Shown one piece after another: positions 4,551 to 57,270 of a stretch of DNA of 64,000 nt. This DNA comes from Candidatus Zipacnadum vermilionense. GTDB lineage: Bacteria > Armatimonadota > Zipacnadia > Zipacnadales > Zipacnadaceae. The notes under the pieces were generated by a model. That model was not told the DNA's origin. It made no database searches and saw only the letters and a program-made list of their open reading frames with translations. The stretch lies in NCBI GenBank assembly GCA_029821755.1, contig JALGSV010000006.1, positions 42,018 through 106,017 of the forward strand, read 5' to 3'. Position numbers and translations under genes: made by a program. Numbering within the stretch: the stretch's first letter is position 1; every line of letters begins with the position of its first letter.

Positions 4551-4701
4551 GGAAATCGCGGAACGATGCTCGATGACTTGGGGAACGGAGAGAACGTGTC
4601 CCCCGGTCGTCGTATGGGAATTGTAGCACAAACGGTGGTGCGGAGAAAGGAGAGGCCAGGGGTTGGGCCCTGGGAGGGGGCGGGAGGTTCCACGCATCCG
4701 G

Positions 4702-24523: not shown

Positions 24524-27500
24524 CTACCCTTTCGCCAACTGTACCTGGGTCACGTTGGCGGGGAGGGTCAGGCGGCATTTGCCCTCACCCACCCGCTCCC
24601 ACTTGACACCCGCCGCCGGCTTGACCGGGCTCCAGGCGCCAGGGAGGGTGATGGTGACCTGCAGCTCCTGGTGCCCTGCCGGGGCGTTGATAGCAGCCGC
24701 GGCCTCGCCCGCGCGCAGACTCACGGGAGCGTCGGCTTGGACGGCGCAATCCTCGTACGCCACCTCGCCCGCCGCGTTGAGGGCCAGGACCAAGCCGGTG
24801 GCGCGGTCCTGGATGCAGGCGCTAGTGCCCCGGAAGCGGGCGGCGTCAGCGTCAGCCGTGGCCTCAGCGGCGCTGAGGAAGGCGTAGTCGGTGCCCCAGT
24901 CAGCGGAGACCTTGATGACCTTGCCCCCGCCGAGCGTGGCGAAGGTGGGCACGGGCTCGGTGCGCAGGCGCGGGTACATGGCCACGAAGTAGACACCGTC
25001 GCCCGGCATCTGGACCTGCAGCAGGTCCTGGTACTCGTCGCCCACCACCCCGTAGTCCCCGTAGTACGTCCCCCAGCGCAGCGTCCAGCGGGGAGTGCCG
25101 GTGGGGGCGGCCAGGTAGTACTCCAGGTCGAGGTCAAGCTGGCCGACGGCGGTGAAGCGGTCGCCGGTCAGCGGACTGGGCGGAACGGCCGTCTCGCCGG
25201 GCTTGTCGGCGAGGAAGGCCGTCACGTCTGCGGCCTGCTCCGGCGTGCCGAGCTTCTCCGACAGCGTCCACATCTGCCACATGGTGGGCTGGCCGCCGCT
25301 GACCGTGTCGCGGAACACCAGGTAGTTGGGACCGCCCGGATCATCGTCCTTCAGGTACAGCACCTGACGGCGCCAGTCGAAGGGGTCCTGGCCTTCCTGG
25401 GCCACCGGGGGCCACTCGGTGAGGTCCGCCGGCACGTCGGTGGTCCACCAGTTGGCGTCGTAGACGCTGCCGATGGCGTAGGTGGTGTTGACGTAGTCAG
25501 CGCGCGGCAATAAGGCGGACAGGTCTTCCCCGGTAACGGTCGCGTTGCCAAAGGGGAGGAACCAGTTGTCCCCGGGCTTCCAGGTACGGGCGCGCAGCAC
25601 GCGGCTGGTAAGCAGCTCCTGGCGCTCGGAGTAGCCGGGGCAGAACAGACCGGCGATGGGCCGCCCCTTGGCGAACCACTTCATCAGCCCGCCCGGCTCC
25701 GAGACACGGGCGAACGCGATCTTGCTGTTGGTGAGCAGCAGAACGTAGTTCTCCTCGAGCGTCCCCACCCCGTTGCGCAGAATTGATCCCATCTCGGGGA
25801 ACCAGTCGGAGCCCCAGGCGGGCTTCTCCGCCGGCTGGTCGGGATCGAGGACCACCACCTCGAAGCCGGAGAGGCGCGTGTCCATCACCTTCATGTCGTA
25901 GCCCGACTGGGCCCAGCACCACTGCATGATCCGCGAGTACTCCGGCCGTGTCTCGCGGGTGAGAGCCGCGAGCAGGCCCAGGTGCGCCCACATCTCGCCG
26001 GCCTGGGCCCGGCCCAGGGGCGGCGAAGCACGGCGGTCGCCGCGCTGCGGGTCCAGGGGCGTCTGGTGCTTGGCGATGTACATACCGAACCTGAGGAAAG
26101 CCGGATCCTTGCCATAGTCGTAGAATCCCGCCCGCTGGGCGGCAAGCGCGAACCAGATCATCGTCGAGTAGGTCACCTGGGCGTAGTGCCCGCTCTCGTA
26201 CCACTCACCCTCCGGTCCCACCTCGGTCATCCACTGGTTCATCCGCGCGATGGCCGGCTCCACCCAGGCCTTAGCCATAGGATGATCGGGCAGCAGGCAG
26301 GCGAGAATCCCGCGGGCGAGCATGTGCGACACGCTCATGTTCGGGTTGCCGGATTTGTAACCGCGTTCAATAGACCAGGTGGAGGGGTCGTTGATCTTAT
26401 AGGCCAGGTAGGCCATCTGCGCCCGGTAGAGCGGCCGCTCCTCCGGCGTCACCAGGTCGCTGTCGATCAGAGCGTCGTACAGGGCCGCCACGATGCCGGT
26501 GGAGCGCATGGTGTCGAACTGGCCCAGCAGGTTCAGGTGCTGTGGCAAGCGCTCCGCCAACTGCACCTCAGTGGCGATCTCGTCTTTCCCCCCCGAGCGC
26601 AGCCAGGCCTCCAGCGCCCAAGCGTCCTTGTAGGAGGGTTCGGGGCGAATCTCGGGCTTGGTAGCGAGAATGTACTGAATCTGCTTCTCATCGTGCGGCG
26701 CGGTCCGGAAGTACTCCTGCACCTGCTCGCGCGAGACGAACAGGCGCGGGTGGGAGTCGGGCTGCTCCGGCCAGTCGAGCACATAGTCTTTGACCACGTT
26801 GAGCGGTTCCCGACCCATTCCTCGTTCCCACCACGAGAAGGCGCCCTCGCCGGTTGGCACCATCACCTGCCGGGAGGTCCAGCGACGGATCCCCTGGGCG
26901 TTGTTGACGCGTAGGTAGACCTCGCCGTTGTCGGCGCGCTCGATGGGAATTAGCTTGTGCTGCCAGCCGCCCCAGTCGCGCATCGTCCCCGGTGCGGCGG
27001 GCTCGACCCAGGCTCCGGGGTCGCGGCTGGATATCTGCAGTTGCGTGTTCTTGCCGGTGATATTGAGGGGAATGAGTATCTGGGTGTAGTCGTCCCACCA
27101 GTCGTTCCAGGGAGTGAGCTTCGTGACGATACGCTCATTGTAGGCATCGAGTGGCAGCTCGACCAGGTCGCCGACCTTGGCCTCGCTGTCCAGGAAGACC
27201 TTGCGCTTGGTGAACCACTCCATGTTGACGGGAAAGACGAGCGGGGGCAGGCCCTGACTAAGCAGGAAGTCCACGCCGTCTGCGACGCGGTCGTCCTTGA
27301 CGTCAGTGTCCCACATGATCCCGCAGTCGCCGGCGTTGACCTGAGCAATCATTCTTAGCGTGTTACCGTCCGCGTAGGTGTAGAGGTACTCGACGCGGGC
27401 GAAGACTCCGCCCACGCTGGTGAGGAGCGCCTGGTAGGAGGTGATGGTGGTATTGCCAAACAGGCGGCTGCCGGAGAACTGCGTACCGTCGCCGAGGGCC

Positions 27501-49715: not shown

Positions 49716-50930
49716 ATGCGCAGATACGTCGTCCTCATCGCCTCCGTGGTCATTCAGATATGCCTCGGGGGCACTTATGCGTGGAGCGCTTTTGTCCCGG
49801 CGCTCAGCGAGAAGTATGGCCTGAGCAGCGCCCAGACGCAAACCATCTTCGGCGTCACCATCGCGGTGCTGACCCTCTCCATGGTGCTTTCTGGGAGGTT
49901 ACAGGATCGCTACGGGCCGCGCCTGGTGGCCATGATCGGCGCTGCTCTGTACGCTTGTGGCTACGTGCTGGCCTCCTTCTCCCACGGCGCGTATCCCCTG
50001 CTCTTGCTGGAGGTCGGCTTCATCGTCGGCGCCGGCATCGGCTTCGTCTACGTCTGCTCCCTGGCCACCTGCATCAAATGGTTCCCCGAGCGCAAGGGGC
50101 TGATCACCGGCGTAGCGGTGGCGGGCTACGGCGCGGGGGCCATCGTCCTGTCCTACCTGGCAACGGCCCTGTTCGCCCGGGGACTAGACGTGCTGGAGAT
50201 CTTCCGCTGGATTGGCCTCTGCTACGGTGTGGTGGTCTTTCTGGGCGCGCTGCTGCTGAGTGTCCCCGCGACCGCCAGCCCGGCGCAGGCGCGGGTGAGT
50301 GTGGGCTTGGGCGAGGTGCTCGGCCACCGGGCCTTCTGGGGACTGGCAGTCGGGGTGTTCTGCGGCACCTGCGCCGGGGTGATTGTGATCGGCAATCTCA
50401 AGCCTATGGGCCTCCACGCCGGGGTCGGTCTCGGCGTGGCCACGACCGCGATCAGTGCCCTGGCGGTCGGCAACGCTCTCGGCCGGATCTCCTGGGGCCT
50501 GCTCTACGACCGCTGGGGACAAGCGGTTATCCCGTTGTCGCTGCTCTTCCTGGCGGGAGCCGACCTGGCCTTGCTGGGTGCGCGGGGCAGCGGAGCTGGG
50601 CTCCTGCTGGCCGCCCTCGCGGTGGGCCTAGGTTACGGAGCCTGCGTGGTCCTGTATGCCGCCCGCGTCGCCTCGGTCTGGGGCCCCGAGCGCGTGGGGA
50701 GCGTCTACCCCATGGTTATGCTCTTCCACGGGGCCGCCGCCTTCGTGGCCCCGGCGCTGGGCGGGCGACTGTTCGACGTGACTGGCGACTTCACTCTGTC
50801 GCTGCTGCTGGCCGCCAGCACCGCCCTGGTGGGCGCTGCGGCGGTGTGGATGCTCATGGCGCGCGACGCAGCCCCGCCGACCCCGGCGGTGACCTCCGAA
50901 GCAATGCTGATGGTCGAGCCGCCGGACTGA
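49716..50930 (+). CDS. MFS transporter (OFA, oxalate:formate antiporter-like)
   Basis: YAWSAF, GRLQDRYGPR, KWFPERKGLITG and GNALGRISWG motifs. Confidence 0.9.
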   Translation: MRRYVVLIASVVIQICLGGTYAWSAFVPALSEKYGLSSAQTQTIFGVTIAVLTLSMVLSGRLQDRYGPRLVAMIGAALYACGYVLASFSHGAYPLLLLEVGFIVGAGIGFVYVCSLATCIKWFPERKGLITGVAVAGYGAGAIVLSYLATALFARGLDVLEIFRWIGLCYGVVVFLGALLLSVPATASPAQARVSVGLGEVLGHRAFWGLAVGVFCGTCAGVIVIGNLKPMGLHAGVGLGVATTAISALAVGNALGRISWGLLYDRWGQAVIPLSLLFLAGADLALLGARGSGAGLLLAALAVGLGYGACVVLYAARVASVWGPERVGSVYPMVMLFHGAAAFVAPALGGRLFDVTGDFTLSLLLAASTALVGAAAVWMLMARDAAPPTPAVTSEAMLMVEPPD

Positions 50931-50961
50931 ACGTACGCACGGGAAGCCGCGTCGACTCCCC

Positions 50962-51095
50962 GTAGGGGCGGATATTGCGGCTTCCGAGCCGCAATATCCG
51001 CCCGCGCCCGTCGAGAACGTCACTATTGCCATGGCTTGTGGCTTCCGTGGGCGGATGTTTCGCGGGATACGGCCCCGCGAAGTATCCGCCCCTAC
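50962..51095. repeat. GTAG-type REP doublet (family C)
   Basis: Inverted relative of 28043-28190; lies between the tandem MFS paralogs. Confidence 0.85.
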
Positions 51096-51138
51096 GGGGT
51101 CACCGGAACCGTTCACACACGCCCTGGACGCAGACTTC

Positions 51139-52437
51139 ATGGATCACCATCTCCCCGAGACAATCAGCGTCGCCGATGAACTGGCCGGTCCGTTGGAGCC
51201 GGCCGCACTGACCTGTCCGGTCCCCTCCAGGCGGCGCTGGACGGTACTGGTCGCCTCGGTGGTGATGCAACTAGCGCTCGGCGGCATCTACGCCTGGAGC
51301 ACCTTCGCCGTTCCTCTGCGCCAAGGGCACGGCTTAACCAACGCCCAAACCCAGATGATCTTCGGCCTCACCATCGCCCTGCTAACCACCTCCCAAATCA
51401 TCTCCGGCCGCCTACAGATACGCCACGGCCCCCGCCGGGTGGCGCTGCTGGGCGCCGTGCTCTACGGCAGCGGCTACGTGATCGCCGGCTACTCCGGCGG
51501 CAGCTTCCCGGTGCTGCTAGTGGGCATCGGTCTCATCGGCGGACTGGGCACCGGCCTGGCCTACCTGTGCCCGGTTACCAGTTGCCTTTGCTGGTTCCCC
51601 GAGCGCAAGGGCCTCATCACCGGCATCGCCGTCGCGGGCTTCGGGGCGGGGGCAATTGTCCTGTCGGTAGTGGCTCGCGTGGCCTTCAACCACGGCTGGG
51701 ACGTGCTGCGCTTCTTTTGCTGGATGGGCCCTGTCTGGGGCGCGATAGTCCTGCTCAGCGCTCTGTTCCTGTCGACGCCCGCCCTCGCGCCCGGCGAGGA
51801 GCTGCCGGAGCGGCCCCTGTTCTTGACGCTGCTCCGCAGGCGAGATTTCCAGCGCCTGGTTTTGGGGACGTATTGCATCTCCTTCGCCGGCCTGACCGTC
51901 ATCGGCAGCCTGGAGCCAATGGGGCGCGCGGCCAGTCTCGCCCCGGCGATAGCTACCCTCGCCATCAGCCTGCTGGCGGTGGGGAATTCCGTCGGGCGGA
52001 TCACCTGGGGCGGGGTATATGATCGCGTGGGGCGCGCCTCCGTGCCTGCGGCCCTGTTCTGCACCGGCCTGGCGGCCCTGGCCATGCTCTCGCTGGGCCG
52101 GAGCCAACCGGGCTACCTCTTCGCCGCCATCGTCACCGGGCTGACCTACAGCGCGACCACAGTGCTGTTCGCCGCGGAGGTCGCCACCCTCTGGGGTCCC
52201 TCGCTGGTCGGCGTCATCTACCCCTTCCTAAGTGTCTTCACCGGTCTGGCGGCGCTCACCGGCCCCTCGATAACCGGTGCCCTATACGACCGCACCGGAA
52301 GCTACGCCCCCGCTCTGCTGCTCAGCGCGGCGGTAGCGATAATCGGAGCGGCTCTGATATGGAAGTGGCCGCACCTTGACGATACGCGGCCAACCAACGA
52401 CAATAGCAGACAGACGGCGCCAGCGACGAGGGAGTAG
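51139..52437 (+). CDS. MFS transporter (OFA-like), tandem paralog
   Basis: YAWSTF, WFPERKGLITG and GRITWG motifs. Confidence 0.88.
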   Translation: MDHHLPETISVADELAGPLEPAALTCPVPSRRRWTVLVASVVMQLALGGIYAWSTFAVPLRQGHGLTNAQTQMIFGLTIALLTTSQIISGRLQIRHGPRRVALLGAVLYGSGYVIAGYSGGSFPVLLVGIGLIGGLGTGLAYLCPVTSCLCWFPERKGLITGIAVAGFGAGAIVLSVVARVAFNHGWDVLRFFCWMGPVWGAIVLLSALFLSTPALAPGEELPERPLFLTLLRRRDFQRLVLGTYCISFAGLTVIGSLEPMGRAASLAPAIATLAISLLAVGNSVGRITWGGVYDRVGRASVPAALFCTGLAALAMLSLGRSQPGYLFAAIVTGLTYSATTVLFAAEVATLWGPSLVGVIYPFLSVFTGLAALTGPSITGALYDRTGSYAPALLLSAAVAIIGAALIWKWPHLDDTRPTNDNSRQTAPATRE

Positions 52438-52460
52438 GCGCCGGTGGAGGTTTTCCAGTA

Positions 52461-53036
52461 GTGAAGATCGGGGTATTGAGCTTACAGGGCGATTTCGCCG
52501 AGCATATAGTGGCTTTGCGGGAGGCGGGAGCGGACGCGGCAGCGGTCAAGAAGCCGGAGGACGTGCTCTCCTGCGCCGGACTAGTGATTCCCGGCGGAGA
52601 GTCCACTACCATCGGCAAGCTGTGCGTGCGCTTTGGCGTGGGGGAGGCTATCCAGGAGCTGGCCCGCCGCGGCGCCCCGATCTGGGGCACCTGCGCCGGG
52701 ATGATCCTGCTCGCCAAGGAGATTGAGGAGAGCGACCAGTGGCGTCTGGGCCTGATGGACATTGCCGTGCGCCGCAATGCCTTCGGGCGGCAGGTGGATA
52801 GCTTCGAGGCGGACGTGCCGATGGCCGGTGTCGAGGGCGGCCCGGTGAGGGCAGTATTCATCCGCGCCCCCCACGTCACGCGAGTCCTCGACGGCGCCGA
52901 GGCGCTGGCGACCCTCCATGACAAGATCATCGCCGCCCGCCAGGGCCAGTTCCTGGTCACGGCGTTTCATCCGGAGCTGACGGACGACCGGCGGGTGCAG
53001 GAGTATTTCATCGGGATGGTGCGGGAGGGGAAGTGA
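52461..53036 (+). CDS. pdxT: Pyridoxal 5'-phosphate synthase, glutaminase subunit
   Basis: IGVLSLQG, PGGESTT, GTCAG, RNAFGRQVDSFE and FHPE motifs. Confidence 0.97.
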   Translation: MKIGVLSLQGDFAEHIVALREAGADAAAVKKPEDVLSCAGLVIPGGESTTIGKLCVRFGVGEAIQELARRGAPIWGTCAGMILLAKEIEESDQWRLGLMDIAVRRNAFGRQVDSFEADVPMAGVEGGPVRAVFIRAPHVTRVLDGAEALATLHDKIIAARQGQFLVTAFHPELTDDRRVQEYFIGMVREGK

Positions 53037-54317
53037 GGTAGGGCGGGGGCTACGTCCCCCGCCGCTCCCCAGCTCCATCCCAGCCATAGTACTGCGACCA
53101 CCAGCATCGGTCTCAGAAAGGGTGAGCATCCATGCAAGGCGACTTAGACGAACTGCGGCGCTTCGTGGAAAAGGTGAAGGGTTTGGTGGCGCAAAGGGCT
53201 GACTTTGTCGAGGCACAGACCAGAATCGCTCTCGTGGATCCGCTGCTCAGGTGGCTGGGGTGGGACGTATCTGACCCCTCCCAGGTGCAGGTGGAATGGA
53301 AGCGAAAGGGCCAGAAAGAGGGTGTTGACTACGCCCTGTTCGAGGGGGACGATCTCCTGCTCCTAGTCGAAGCGAAGCAGCTCACTGACCCTCTCAAAGA
53401 TAGAGGTTTGTGGCAGCTAATCAAGTACGTTCCGATAAGCGAGTCAGAAAAGGCCCGGTGGGGCATCCTCACGAGTGGCCGCGTGATAGTATTGGTGAAC
53501 GCCGACCAGAAGGGCACCCTGGAGAGCAAAATCTTCTGGAGACTCGATCTGGCGCAGGTCGACGCCCCTGGCGGGCCGTCGCTTCAAGAGGCAGCAGACA
53601 ATCTCCGCCTCCTCAGAAAGGAAGCACTCTCCAGTGGAGAGACCGACAAGGCTTGGGATGAGGAGCAGGTGCAAAGCAAAGCAAGGGCCGCCGTCGAGGC
53701 CCTTTTAGGCGCCCCCTCGGAGGAGCTGGTGGAACTGGTCCGCAACCAGGCCGGCGCATCGGACCTGCCGAAGGACGTTGTCGCCGTTCATCTGGCGGCG
53801 CTAGTGGGAAAAGAGCCCAATGCCACGGCCACTGCAACGCCGGCAGGAGGCGGGGTTACCCATAGACGAAAGCTCGAGGTATATGATCGACCCTTCTACG
53901 AGGAGTCGCACGATGCAAAAGCCGTTGATCAGTTCCTCGCCGTGGCTGACGCGATAGAGAAGCTCGCGTCCGCCAAGAGGTGGGCTGTTAAGAAGAAACC
54001 CAATATGTACTACGTAGGGTTCAAGTACGGGAGTAGGATATGCTTTCTGGTACATTGGATCAGTAGAGTGAGTTGGGACCTGGGCTTCAGAGTCCCCGAG
54101 GGTGCAGTCGAGGAGATGGGGGCAGAGCACTGGAGCGTTCATAGCTACGATAGCAAATCGAGTTGGGCGGTAATTCGCTGTGCGGAGCCGGAAACGGCCA
54201 ATATAGAGGAACTCGAAGCGCTATTCGAGGCTGCCTACCGCTTCATCGCTGGGGCGTAACGCATAGGCCCGATGGGTGCAGGAGTATTTCATCCGGATGG
54301 TGCGGGAGAGAGAGTGA
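52993..54317 (+). mobile_element. Integrase-free insert bounded by 44-bp direct repeats of the pdxT 3' end (52993-53036 and 54274-54317)
   Basis: The two copies match at 40/44 nt and both end in TGA in the pdxT frame. Confidence 0.75.
53132..54259 (+). CDS. HsdR N-terminal-like PD-(D/E)xK nuclease with a C-terminal DUF5655-like domain
   Basis: LVDPLLRWLGWD, VDYAL, LVEAK, QLIKY and WGILTSG motifs; visibly more A/T-ending codons than the neighbours. Confidence 0.75.
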   Translation: MQGDLDELRRFVEKVKGLVAQRADFVEAQTRIALVDPLLRWLGWDVSDPSQVQVEWKRKGQKEGVDYALFEGDDLLLLVEAKQLTDPLKDRGLWQLIKYVPISESEKARWGILTSGRVIVLVNADQKGTLESKIFWRLDLAQVDAPGGPSLQEAADNLRLLRKEALSSGETDKAWDEEQVQSKARAAVEALLGAPSEELVELVRNQAGASDLPKDVVAVHLAALVGKEPNATATATPAGGGVTHRRKLEVYDRPFYEESHDAKAVDQFLAVADAIEKLASAKRWAVKKKPNMYYVGFKYGSRICFLVHWISRVSWDLGFRVPEGAVEEMGAEHWSVHSYDSKSSWAVIRCAEPETANIEELEALFEAAYRFIAGA

Positions 54318-54373
54318 CGATCGACTGACACTTTCCCCCTTGCGTCTCGCGACTTCCCGACGGAGGTAAACGT

Positions 54374-55129
54374 GTGAAGGGCATCATCCTCGTCGGTGGC
54401 CTGGGGACTCGGCTCTACCCGATGACGCGGGTGACCAACAAGCACCTGCTGCCGGTGGACCGCTTTCCCATGGTCTACTACCCCGTGCACAACTTGGTCG
54501 AGGCCGGGGTGCGTGATATCATGCTGGTGACCGGCGGCAACCAGGTCGGCGCCTTCCTGGAGTTGCTGCGGGACGGGCGCGAGTTCGGCCTGGAGCATCT
54601 GTACTTCGCCTACCAGCACGCGCCGCGGGGCATCGCCGACGCCCTGCGCTGCGCCGAGCGCTTCGCGGACCGCGAGCGCTGCATCGTCATGCTGGGCGAC
54701 AACATCCTGGCCGGTAGCATCAAGCCCTTCGTGGACAAATTCCGCGCCCAGCCCGCCGGCGCTCGGGTGCTGGCCAAGGAGGTCCCCGACCCCCACCGCT
54801 TCGGCGTCCCCCGCTTCGACGACCAAGGCCACATCACCGAAATCATCGAAAAACCGGCTGATCCGCCCTCCAATCTGGCCATCATCGGCGTCTATATGTA
54901 CGACGAGACGCTGTGGGACATCCTGCCCGCGCTGGAGCTGTCGGCGCGGGGCCAGTACGAGATCACCGACGTAAACAACGCCTACTTGGCAAAGCACCAA
55001 TTGGAGTGTGACACCATTCCCTTCGCCTGGTCCGATGCCGGCACCCCCGAGAGCCTCCACCGCGCCGCAGAAATGATGCGCGCCAGTGACTTCCTACCGG
55101 CGGTGGCAGAGGGAGTATGGGAGGCGTAG
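54374..55129 (+). CDS. Sugar-phosphate nucleotidyltransferase (short RfbA/SpsI-like)
   Basis: GIILVGGLGTRLYPMT, NKHLLPV, LGDN, EKP and SARGQYEITD motifs. Confidence 0.9.
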   Translation: MKGIILVGGLGTRLYPMTRVTNKHLLPVDRFPMVYYPVHNLVEAGVRDIMLVTGGNQVGAFLELLRDGREFGLEHLYFAYQHAPRGIADALRCAERFADRERCIVMLGDNILAGSIKPFVDKFRAQPAGARVLAKEVPDPHRFGVPRFDDQGHITEIIEKPADPPSNLAIIGVYMYDETLWDILPALELSARGQYEITDVNNAYLAKHQLECDTIPFAWSDAGTPESLHRAAEMMRASDFLPAVAEGVWEA

Positions 55130-55219
55130 AAGAGAGGAGTGGCAGTCGCTGCCCGACAGTGTCAGGGAAGACCGCTGACGTGCTTCCCCCACTGACACTG
55201 TCCACCAGCGCTAACAGCT

Positions 55220-56089
55220 ATGCCCTTCTGGCAAGCCCTACTTAGTGAAGCCGGTGACACCCAAACCTGGGCGGGACGACTACTCAGCGTCCTGGCGACC
55301 GCCCTGGTCGCGACGCTGCTGATCACTCTAATCGTCGCCGTTGAGCGCCGTCTGCGTCCCGCTCTGCTGCGCCGGGCGGAGGCTGCCCCCGGCGCCAAGG
55401 CCGCTCGCGCCCGCGCCGCGACCACGGCCGTCTCTTTGCTTGGCAGTGTGGCCCGCTGGGCCGTCCTGCTGCTGGCCGGGCTCTACATTCTCGCCTCGTT
55501 AGGCATCAACCTCCTGCCGGTGCTCACCGGTCTCGGCTTCCTCGGCGCCGCCCTGGCCTTTGGCTCCCAATCCCTCGTGAGGGACCTCGTCACCGGCCTG
55601 TTCATCCTCCTGGAGGGCCAGTACGCCGTGGGCGACTACGTCTCCCTCAACGGCACCTTCGGCCAAGTCGCCGCCGTCAGCCTGCGCACCACCGCCCTGG
55701 ACACCCCCGACGGCAAGCGCCAATACTTCCCTAACGGCACCATCAGCAAGGTCGCCGTCTACACCGAGCCATTGGCCTGGTTCGAGCTGACCATCCCCCT
55801 CGCCACCGCCCCGCAAGCCGCCGACCTGGAGGAGCCTTTGACCCGCCTAGCCGAGGAACTCCACGCGGCCTTCCCCGAGCGAGTCCTGCAAGTCAGGGAA
55901 GCCGAGCCCTACGCCGAGGAGGGCCAGATGGTCCACGGCCTCCGCCTGCAAGTGGCGGTCTGCCCCGGCTACGAGTGGCTGGCGACGGACGAGCTGATAG
56001 GCCGGGTCAAAGGACTGTTGGAGGCGCGGGAGGCAACTCCGCCGGGAGGACTGCTGCCGGTAGCAAGGGCCCAGGGCATCACTTCCTGA
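55220..56089 (+). CDS. Small-conductance mechanosensitive channel family protein
   Basis: GAALAFGSQSLVRDLVTGLFILLEGQYAVGDYV...LRTT...PNG motif. Confidence 0.9.
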   Translation: MPFWQALLSEAGDTQTWAGRLLSVLATALVATLLITLIVAVERRLRPALLRRAEAAPGAKAARARAATTAVSLLGSVARWAVLLLAGLYILASLGINLLPVLTGLGFLGAALAFGSQSLVRDLVTGLFILLEGQYAVGDYVSLNGTFGQVAAVSLRTTALDTPDGKRQYFPNGTISKVAVYTEPLAWFELTIPLATAPQAADLEEPLTRLAEELHAAFPERVLQVREAEPYAEEGQMVHGLRLQVAVCPGYEWLATDELIGRVKGLLEAREATPPGGLLPVARAQGITS

Positions 56090-56109
56090 AGGCGGCGCAT
56101 GCCCGCTAC

Positions 56110-56138
56110 GAAACCTTTCCCCCTCCCCCGGGGTCTAA
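56110..56138 (+). promoter_or_regulatory. ECF-sigma-like promoter GAAACC-N17-GTCTAA
   Basis: AAC/GTC-type ECF boxes upstream of SD GGAGG and ATG 56173. Confidence 0.5.
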
Positions 56139-56172
56139 CCTATTGTTCCTCAACGCACTCCTATGGAGGCCG

Positions 56173-57270
56173 ATGATGACCGCAGCCCTCGCGATCGTGT
56201 TCCTGCTGAACGGCGCCCAGGTGGACCTGCCGGTACCGGCGCTCATAGTGAACAACGCCGCTTACGTCCCGGCGCGCGCGGTGTTGGAGCAGCTCGGCTG
56301 GAAGGTGGAGTGGGACGCCGCGGCCCAGAAGCTGAACGCTTCGGTGGAAGAGGTGTGCACCTACAGCTTCACCGTCGGCTCGCCCCAGATGACGCTGGAG
56401 TGCAGCGTCTGCGCCACCACCCCCGCCGGCACGCAAGAGACCCTCGACGCCCCGCCGCTGATCATCGGCGACTACCTTTACCTCCCGGTACGGGCGGTGG
56501 CGATTATGGCCGCCGGTCGTACGGAATGGAACGGCCCGACCATGACCGTGAACCTGATCACCGAAGCGCAAGGCAACCCCCAGGACGCGGAGACGGGCAG
56601 CATCATCGCCGATCCGGCCGCCTGGGTCCGCAAGCTGGTGCGCTTGCAGGGAGAATATACCGGCTGGCAAGCCGACCCCTTCGGCCCGGCCGTCTCCCAC
56701 GGCCCCCCCGTCACCCGCAGCGACTGGACGATCCGCGACCTGAGCGGCTCGCTCTACTGCACCCGCCCCACAAGCGTGCAGGAGTTTGCCGTCAAGCTCG
56801 ACCCCCAGGCTGACCTCGGCCGACGGCTCGAGGTGCTTGGCACCGTCGCTCTGACCGCGGACGGCTGGCCCTACCTCCAGATCAGCGACATCTCGCCCTT
56901 GGAGGGTCTGGCCGGGCTGACCTGCTACCTGACCACGGACCGGCATACCTACCAGCCGGGTGAGGTAGCCAAGCTTCAGATGAAGGTGTTCAACCCCACC
57001 GAGGAGGCCCAGATACTGCAGTTCCGCACCAGCCAGCAGTTCGACTTCAGCGCGCGCAACCCCGACGGCGAGACGGTCTGGAAGTGGTCACAGGGCCTCA
57101 TGTTCGCGCAGATGCTGACCCAGAAGGCGCTCCAGCCGGGCGAAGGCTACAGCGTGACTGCGGACTGGACCCTCCCCGCGGACCTGCCCCCCGCCCTCTA
57201 CCGGGTGAGCGGCGAACTCAACCGCGAGGTCTCTTCGTACGTCAAGACCGTCTCGGTGACGAAGGAGTAA
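56173..57270 (+). CDS. Stalk (copper amine oxidase N-terminal) domain plus OB-like domain plus BsuPI-like domain protein
   Basis: YVPARAVLEQLGWKVEWD and YLPVRAV; TRSDWTIRD; FRTSQQFDF...WKWSQGLMFAQML (BsuPI pattern). Confidence 0.7.
   Translation: MMTAALAIVFLLNGAQVDLPVPALIVNNAAYVPARAVLEQLGWKVEWDAAAQKLNASVEEVCTYSFTVGSPQMTLECSVCATTPAGTQETLDAPPLIIGDYLYLPVRAVAIMAAGRTEWNGPTMTVNLITEAQGNPQDAETGSIIADPAAWVRKLVRLQGEYTGWQADPFGPAVSHGPPVTRSDWTIRDLSGSLYCTRPTSVQEFAVKLDPQADLGRRLEVLGTVALTADGWPYLQISDISPLEGLAGLTCYLTTDRHTYQPGEVAKLQMKVFNPTEEAQILQFRTSQQFDFSARNPDGETVWKWSQGLMFAQMLTQKALQPGEGYSVTADWTLPADLPPALYRVSGELNREVSSYVKTVSVTKE

Follow-up and report, generated by a model that had tools for sequence, protein, structure and literature searches.

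A predicted stand-alone restriction-type nuclease gene inserted between two copies of the pdxT 3' end

Insertion with long target duplication has been described for restriction-modification (R-M) units, with a lone mcrA gene among the reported cases, and goes back to Nobusato et al. (2000, Gene 259:99), as cited by Furuta, Abe and Kobayashi (Furuta et al., 2010; PMC2853133). In the available text of the latter paper, the class comprises small inserts without a mobility gene that lie between direct repeats of more than 30 bp, single-copy in the empty genome, and that have a lower GC content. Two of these inserts, in H. influenzae, are bounded by 46-bp repeats, which extend 15 and 2 bp into the 3' ends of genes. 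The same text leaves the mechanism open while proposing a double-strand break and a virus-like cycle, and no resolution was found in the examined literature that uses the term from 2012 onward. How defence genes can move in the absence of mobility genes has remained unsettled since 2000, and the genome of Candidatus Zipacnadum vermilionense (here G000) holds three compact cases side by side. The one that is the main subject here lies in a 64,000-nucleotide (nt) stretch of contig JALGSV010000006.1 (the window, to whose positions all coordinates refer unless another contig is named). A small foreign cassette at 53037-54317, whose only gene is predicted to encode a restriction-type nuclease, is inserted directly behind the stop codon of pdxT and ends in a second copy of the pdxT 3' end. 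A further island in the same genome, at leuS, points to homology-guided recombination by the host as the route of insertion.

The pdxT cassette belongs to the class of insertions with long target duplication. So far as the earlier cases are covered by the available text, it resembles them in its small size, its lack of a mobility gene, its restriction-type cargo and its lower GC content. Set against the features by which those cases were selected, the insert is shorter than 20 kb and has no mobility gene (1,232 nt with one open reading frame, ORF), its flanking repeat exceeds 30 bp and is confined to this site (49 nt; two matches in the genome), and it is missing from related genomes with aligning flanks, these being other species. 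A restriction gene paired with a modification gene is present in the leuS island, whereas the pdxT insert holds one nuclease-type gene. Because the lone mcrA gene is among the described cases, the demand for both genes was a search filter and not part of the phenomenon. The locus differs from the published cases in that the genomes compared are not strains of one species, in that its cargo is an HsdR_N-DUF5655 protein and not a classified R-M type, in that the whole repeat lies inside the upstream coding end and stops at the stop codon, and in that the sister island at leuS keeps a piece of the downstream gene. Novelty of the layout itself is not supported, given the cases described in the available text of Furuta et al. 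(2010). What the genome adds is three selfish-gene cassettes, a repeat that ends at the stop codon, and a fragment of thuA as evidence for homology-guided import.

Some known elements, e14 and phage 21 in icd among them, are integrase-borne and rebuild the 3' end of the protein gene into which they insert. In these, as at pdxT, the gene is completed by a duplicate of its end, and its displaced end is found on the far side of the element. However, they encode an integrase, and the pdxT cassette does not. A closer parallel in this respect is the H47 island of E. coli, a 13-kb element whose excision and integration have been shown by experiment (Azpiroz et al., 2011; PMC3191183). According to the available text, H47 shares with the pdxT cassette the lack of an integrase and imperfect direct repeats with blocks of identity, and its mobility relies on functions supplied by the host. 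It is larger, however, with longer repeats and experimentally established mobility, while the pdxT cassette is known from sequence alone. The attachment sites of H47 are widespread among strains, in contrast to the pdxT repeat, which occurs in none of the 66 other genomes of the order.

The insertion behind pdxT

The upstream gene, pdxT (52461..53036, forward strand), is an intact ORF for the glutaminase subunit of pyridoxal 5'-phosphate synthase, with matches to PF01174 (E 8.9e-63, profile positions 1-186 of 188) and TIGR03800 (E 1.2e-70). It had been predicted that its 3' end recurs 1,281 nt downstream, and both 44-nt copies lie where they were placed, at 52993-53036 and 54274-54317. A repeat search extends the pair to 49 nt, of which 43 are identical (88%), including perfect blocks of 20 and 14 nt. 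Copy 1 (52988..53036, forward strand) comprises the last 49 nt of pdxT with its TGA stop codon. Copy 2 (54269..54317, forward strand) is a displaced, non-functional 3' end with no pdxT coding sequence upstream of it; it lies 9 nt after the stop codon of the inserted gene and 56 nt before an rmlA-like gene. The pair is the longest direct repeat in 52000-55500, the runner-up being 25 nt long at 84%. A 35-nt pattern that covers both identical blocks, searched with up to three mismatches, has exactly two matches in the genome and none in the 66 other genomes of the order (reversed control 0). The pdxT-end repeat is therefore not a dispersed repeat. A diversity-generating retroelement was considered for the differences between the copies and rejected by eye, as they also affect bases other than adenine and there is no reverse transcriptase.

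The inserted DNA (53037..54268, forward strand) is recognized by its GC content and by the lack of a counterpart in relatives. Its mean GC content is 0.589, compared with 0.668 and 0.676 in the 5-kb flanks, and the profile runs at 0.55-0.62 inside the insert against 0.66-0.71 outside, which bears out the view of the gene as compositionally atypical. Between the copies there are only a hairpin (53038-53063) and a single ORF (53132-54259), as predicted. With no second ORF in the insert, the absence of a methylase is also upheld. The promoter scan found no sigma-70-like sites within the insert, and Rfam families gave no match at E<=1 in 51000-56500. Non-coding DNA in the insert amounts to 95 nt on the left, 26 of which are the hairpin, and 9 nt on the right, so there is no room for a decayed integrase. 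The genome contains eight tyrosine-recombinase genes over the Pfam cut-off and two serine-recombinase genes, all on other contigs (C1, C114, C28, C53, C73 and C18), and there is no recombinase in the insert or on its contig. The description of the island as integrase-free thus holds. No DDE transposase fits in the insert, and no genome-wide search was made for DDE transposases.

The downstream neighbour is an rmlA-like sugar-phosphate nucleotidyltransferase gene (54374..55129, forward strand; PF00483, E 2e-50; TIGR01207, E 7e-66, under the cut-off of that profile), which in relatives directly follows pdxT. The stretch from pdxT to rmlA was used to search 40 relatives, all of them other species with 71-82% nucleotide identity, and adjacency was scored where both aligned parts lay on one contig with less than 250 nt between them. 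On this measure, pdxT adjoins the rmlA-like gene in 23 of the 40. At the eight loci where the gap between the pdxT stop and the following start was measured exactly, it is -4 to 174 nt. Of the other 17 relatives, four gave no match, G002 has a contig break just 3' of pdxT, and G001 has a different upstream neighbour; in the remainder the two genes were on separate contigs or only one was seen. Neither cargo at this site nor the repeat was found in any of the 40. The 375-aa protein encoded by the insert was not found in the three same-genus genomes. Matches at E<=1e-5 occur in 19 of the 67 genomes of the order (this genome included), across 12 of its 28 genera, the best within the order having 40% identity over residues 3-224. 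The adjacency of the two genes in relatives, the lack of the cargo there and the low GC content together identify the segment as an insertion of foreign origin, in agreement with the predicted insertion behind a housekeeping gene.

The assembly of G002, the nearest relative, is interrupted at a palindromic repeat immediately 3' of pdxT. The end of contig C34 and the start of contig C35 of that genome (L011 and L004) have in common a long palindromic repeat that resembles a miniature inverted-repeat transposable element (MITE). The space 3' of pdxT also takes up repeats elsewhere in the genus.

The hairpin at the left edge of the insert (53038..53063, forward strand; DNA fold -11.9 kcal/mol) is a GTAG-headed repetitive extragenic palindromic (REP) element and an exact copy of a dispersed family. 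This family has 30 copies in the genome with at most three mismatches, seven of them exact with this one included (reversed control 0), and the same REP is found in G002 and G024. Genes for Y1 transposases (RAYT-like) are present in the genome as matches to PF01797, three of which exceed the cut-off. Given the 30 dispersed copies, the hairpin is native repeat DNA at the edge of the insert. The original prediction was correct about its presence, but it is not private to the island. An exact REP copy at this edge is what a donor of the same REP-bearing lineage could have supplied.

The predicted nuclease

The inserted gene (53132..54259, forward strand) encodes a protein of 375 amino acids (aa) in which profiles, alignment and fold distinguish an N-terminal HsdR_N-type PD-(D/E)xK module (residues ~1-230) and a C-terminal DUF5655-like domain (~248-374). 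The whole protein passes the PF04313 (HSDR_N) profile narrowly, with 26.3 bits (E 8e-6) against a cut-off of 25.1, and residues 1-169 alone score 29.5 bits. The likeness to HsdR_N that was originally proposed is backed by the alignment and the fold. In an alignment of 20 sequences, residues T30, E55, D66, E80, K82, W110, G116, K133 and L158 are invariant (20 of 20), and D66...E80-x-K82 constitutes the predicted PD-(D/E)xK motif. In the AlphaFold model, most of residues 11-220 have a per-residue confidence (pLDDT) of >90, and the C-terminal third is poorly modelled (pLDDT <50). The top Foldseek matches of the model are restriction enzymes, namely DrdV (E 5e-4, probability 1.0), the HsdR fragment 3h1t (E 4e-3) and BpuSI (E 0.016). 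A sequence search of the PDB with the 375-aa protein returned nothing significant.

The C-terminal 127 residues match the PADLOC candidate PDC-S18 with an E-value of 5e-26. In its 340-380-aa architecture and in this C-terminal match the protein resembles PDC-S18 and the HsdR_N-DUF5655 proteins; it differs from PDC-S18 in that only the C-terminal part of the profile is matched (positions 181-306 of 307), and the profile is not matched as a whole. The match to DUF5655 (PF18899) is weak, 14.6 bits (E 0.035) against a cut-off of 24. Clusters of 340-380-aa proteins are the nearest neighbours in the protein atlas (scores 0.93-0.95), with PF04313 in 70-91% and PF18899 in 48-60% of their members. To our knowledge, no member of the HsdR_N-DUF5655 family has a tested function.

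The N-terminal module is widespread in varied company. A HMMER search returned 2,519 proteins at E<=0.001, most of which align only to residues 1-230 and have other C-terminal parts. A word-based protein search found three relatives besides the protein itself: P0002, which has the N-terminal module in common (65% over the N-terminal 61%), P0003 (296 aa), which carries the C-terminal domain behind a different N-terminus (57% over the C-terminal 34%), and a third at 33%. Species-representative genomes yielded one distant match (32% over residues 67-166), and the plasmid and phage collections only distant N-terminal ones with 25-31% identity (20 and 8 records, respectively). These two collections gave no sign of the cassette riding on a known plasmid or phage. 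In the public metagenome run X1, which held 0.05 of the sampled words, seven short contig pieces fell on 51500-55600, none of them spanning a junction. One contig of 267 nt from this run is 97% identical to 53211-53477 within the gene, which indicates that a near-identical nuclease gene exists elsewhere. At one locus of a distant homologue (G043:C16; L029:768-1271 and 2604-2941), clusters of REP- or MITE-like repeats, from families of 4-5 copies, lie on both sides of the gene.

Overall, the gene appears to be an intact gene for a stand-alone restriction-type nuclease. Judged from its domains, the product is most likely a methylase-less DNA-targeting nuclease that acts in defence or as a selfish element, and a defence role for the cassette is inferred on the same grounds. 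Stand-alone HsdR_N-DUF5655 nucleases may accordingly be flagged as likely defence genes.

Gene-end duplications elsewhere in the genome

Two scans of the genome bear on the expectation, raised in the original prediction, that other displaced 3' gene ends might be found. Across all 115 contigs, a k-mer scan found 363 pairs of direct repeats that were at least 30 nt long and no more than 80 kb apart, 107 of them isolated and 35 with exactly two genomic copies. In the second, the last 40 nt of 4,661 long ORFs with high GC content at third codon positions were searched for recurrence within 30 kb downstream; 20 ORFs recurred, compared with 16 for an internal control segment. There is therefore no bulk enrichment of gene-end duplications, and the signal is found only in short isolated two-copy cases. 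Such cases did emerge, at leuS, at argG and on contigs C17 and C31. They have a common layout, in which copy 1 ends a gene and copy 2 keeps the stop codon at the matching place. With pdxT included, five cases were retained, and in all five the well-matched repeat ends no more than ~3 nt from the upstream stop codon. Weaker similarity continues beyond the stop for ~15 nt at leuS and 47 nt on C17. A sixth candidate, on C15, was dropped because it proved to be tandem paralogues.

The leuS island (contig C37, 24611-26704; L040:2112-4205) has a repeat of 44-46 nt at 24611-24654 and +2,050 with one mismatch, and a GC content of 0.555. Its cargo is a complete type II R-M unit, made up of an adenine methyltransferase of the D12 type (PF02086, E 5e-17) and an endonuclease of the EcoRV family (PF09233, E 4e-99). 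In the same-genus genome G002, the locus reads leuS, an ORF of ~115 codons, REPs and thuA, and the R-M unit is missing. The last ~69 nt of the cargo, just before copy 2, are 84-91% identical to the start of thuA, with one 3-nt indel (E 1e-13). This fragment (C37, 26589-26654; L040:4090-4155) corresponds to the thuA start at 26841-26909 (L040:4342-4410) and runs in frame into the displaced leuS end, with which it forms a chimeric ORF of ~38 codons. The order at the locus is thus leuS, methyltransferase, endonuclease, thuA-start fragment, leuS-end copy, spacer and thuA. Within leuS itself, a GC-rich palindromic repeat (L040:1590-1650) is present in frame and adds a Pro/Gly-rich stretch. This repeat is dispersed in G000, G002, G018 and G022, and ~120 nt of leuS around it are missing from the alignments of more distant relatives.

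The argG island (contig C105, 4593-5222; L041:1594-2223) is bounded by an 86-nt repeat at 92% (4593-4678 and +544). Its 442-nt cargo consists of an MNT-type nucleotidyltransferase gene (PF01909, E 3e-12) and a 37-codon ORF, and looks like a toxin-antitoxin remnant. No recombinase is present in the leuS or argG cassette. The other two cases have larger repeats. On contig C17 (82523-84572; L038), the end of a short-chain dehydrogenase gene is duplicated over 130 nt at 92%, around an AhpC-like gene and one ORF without assignment, with normal GC content. On contig C31 (17227-20722; L039), a gene end of 90 nt recurs at 97% beyond a 947-aa glycoside-hydrolase-like gene, also of normal GC content, and a REP lies right after the stop codon of copy 2. 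For argG, C17 and C31 no empty site could be demonstrated, since the relatives are non-syntenic downstream. For the purposes of annotation, short orphan copies of gene ends mark such inserts.

Certain features of sequence recur among the duplicated ends. On the coding strand, the last 45 nt of pdxT, leuS, argG and the C31 gene are rich in G (0.49-0.56), compared with a mean of ~0.36 over the last 60 nt plus 12 beyond. A G fraction of at least 0.46 was found in four of six candidates, with a post hoc P of ~0.006, the six including the C15 candidate that was later dropped. Additionally, the 10-mer GGAGGGGAAG is common to the pdxT and leuS repeats, and has 91 copies in the genome on both strands. 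It is possible that the G-richness and the shared 10-mer are signals of a fragile site, or that they arose by chance.

The route of insertion

Based on the current evidence, the explanation given the most weight is that the cassette was imported from a related bacterium by the host's own recombination, with the end of pdxT as the only homology; a probability of about 0.5 is assigned to it. The incoming DNA would carry the conserved last ~49 nt of pdxT as its sole homology to the site, so that one joint would form at the pdxT end and the second would be illegitimate. Such an event would be formally equal to a single (Campbell-type) crossover of a circularised fragment. After it, pdxT would be intact and followed by the cargo, beyond which a second gene end would stand. 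Later recombination between the two copies could delete the cassette or set it free. In the available text of Furuta et al. (2010), homology-guided import is not discussed: 'single crossover' does not appear there, and 'circular' is used only for permutations. With the thuA fragment at leuS, the vague notion of target duplication becomes a testable model, with one homologous joint in a conserved gene end and one illegitimate joint.

The original prediction named trans-acting or microhomology recombination, which may still apply. The principal support for import by homology comes from the leuS island. The fragment of the thuA start in its cargo indicates that the donor DNA originated at the leuS-thuA locus of a relative and entered this genome at the corresponding position, which favours homology-guided import by the host over a random staggered cut. 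A thuA start joined to a leuS end is the junction expected from a circularised allelic fragment that entered by a single crossover in the leuS end. An identical junction would result if homology acted on one side only and the second joint was illegitimate. The model would also explain why the copies resemble each other most within coding sequence, with the similarity ending close to the stop codon, and why the crossover took place in the near-identical leuS end, which has one mismatch, and not in the more diverged thuA start.

Several observations weigh against this explanation for the pdxT cassette itself. The pdxT insert holds no piece of the rmlA-like gene, so homology guidance is extended to it only by analogy with the leuS island. 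Its repeat matches at only 43 of 49 positions with a longest perfect block of 20 nt, less than RecA-type recombination would normally call for, unless copy 2 has diverged after the insertion. The circularising step is purely a proposal, and the REP at the left edge, which fits a related donor, could have arrived after the insertion. No conspecific genome or donor allele was found among the relatives, the metagenome contigs or the species-representative genomes, and no reads from an empty site or a circle junction were found in the one public run, with its 0.05 of the sampled words. At 12 loci of distant homologues of the nuclease there were no convincing flanking repeats, the best bracketing pair being 27 nt at 74%. 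Moreover, the cargo of C17 and C31 is ordinary, with normal GC content, and these two loci could not be shown to be insertions.

A true target-site duplication is a real but doubtful possibility. In this case, a staggered double-strand break or a replication template switch behind the pdxT stop would have captured the cassette without homology, and fill-in would have copied the 49 nt. The term 'long target duplication' itself implies this reading, and the double-strand break is the one proposed by Furuta et al. (2010). The lengths of the repeats vary from 44 to 130 nt, as they do in the literature, and on C17 the weak similarity runs 31 nt past the stop, as a longer duplication with subsequent drift would give. 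The G-rich ends of four of the six genes, and the hairpin that abuts the junction at pdxT, could likewise mark a fragile site. However, target duplication leaves unexplained why leuS-thuA DNA landed at the leuS-thuA locus. Nor does it account for repeats that end within ~3 nt of the stop in every retained case and not anywhere in the intergenic space, and the six differences among the 49 positions of the pdxT copies would then require later drift.

Site-specific integration, the more classical reading, is quite unlikely. The two copies would be attL and attR, the integrase would have been lost or supplied in trans, as for a cis-mobilizable element (CIME) or the H47 island of E. coli, and the element would have brought its own pdxT end. 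The layout is the classic one of islands that restore the 3' end of a gene, there are blocks of identity (20 and 14 nt) within the imperfect repeats, and the genome has eight tyrosine-recombinase genes over the Pfam cut-off. According to the available text, the integrase-less H47 excises and integrates without homologous recombination, crossing over in identity blocks, and this keeps a trans-acting att reading alive (Azpiroz et al., 2011; PMC3191183). In contrast, attL/attR elements contain their integrase, and none lies in or near any of the three cassettes, where there is no room for a remnant. The pdxT, leuS and argG targets are unrelated save for the one 10-mer, for which the estimate of chance occurrence is ~1%. 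A larger integrase-bearing island at the pdxT site, which would have made the cassette a remnant, was found in none of the 40 relatives, and the absence of the repeat pattern from the other genomes of the order also speaks against an attachment site. Four metagenome contigs do contain the 20-nt core, but they have no other similarity to 50000-57000 at E<=1e-5 and were taken as chance matches.

It is very improbable that the cassette homes, that is, that the encoded nuclease cleaves naive pdxT ends, into which break repair then copies the cassette, in the manner of free-standing homing endonuclease genes that bring a replacement gene end with them. The cargo does encode a nuclease whose catalytic motif appears intact, and the two copies differ as an immune and a sensitive site might. 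However, the same layout is found with unrelated cargo (an R-M pair, an MNT gene and ordinary genes), none of the 12 homologue loci has such repeats, and a family of this size with many C-terminal domains is typical of defence genes. An assembly artefact or chimeric contig is scarcely credible: although the genome is metagenome-derived, in 115 contigs at 95% completeness, and reads of its source were not obtained, the copies, only 88% alike with an identical block of 20 nt at most, lack the length and the likeness needed to confuse an assembler, synteny with relatives extends over both flanks, the insert contains a native REP, and the 267-nt contig of the public run matches part of the gene.

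Import by a single homologous joint might also be part of a wider process, although this extension is rather unlikely. Gene ends of 44-130 nt would then serve as integrase-free attachment sites, at which host recombination would import small selfish or defence cassettes from relatives by a single joint, and from which these would be released as circles and inserted again elsewhere. If this were true, the 'virus-like life cycle' put forward for R-M units by Furuta et al. would be seen with a nuclease, an R-M pair and an MNT gene behind three housekeeping genes, and the retained piece of thuA would be the first sequence trace of a circular or allelic intermediate.

Upstream of pdxT, two paralogous genes for transporters of the major facilitator superfamily (49716-50930 and 51031-52437) adjoin each other. 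They have in common a 74-nt stretch at 86% (contig C69, 92096-92169, and +1,513), which is an ordinary tandem duplication.

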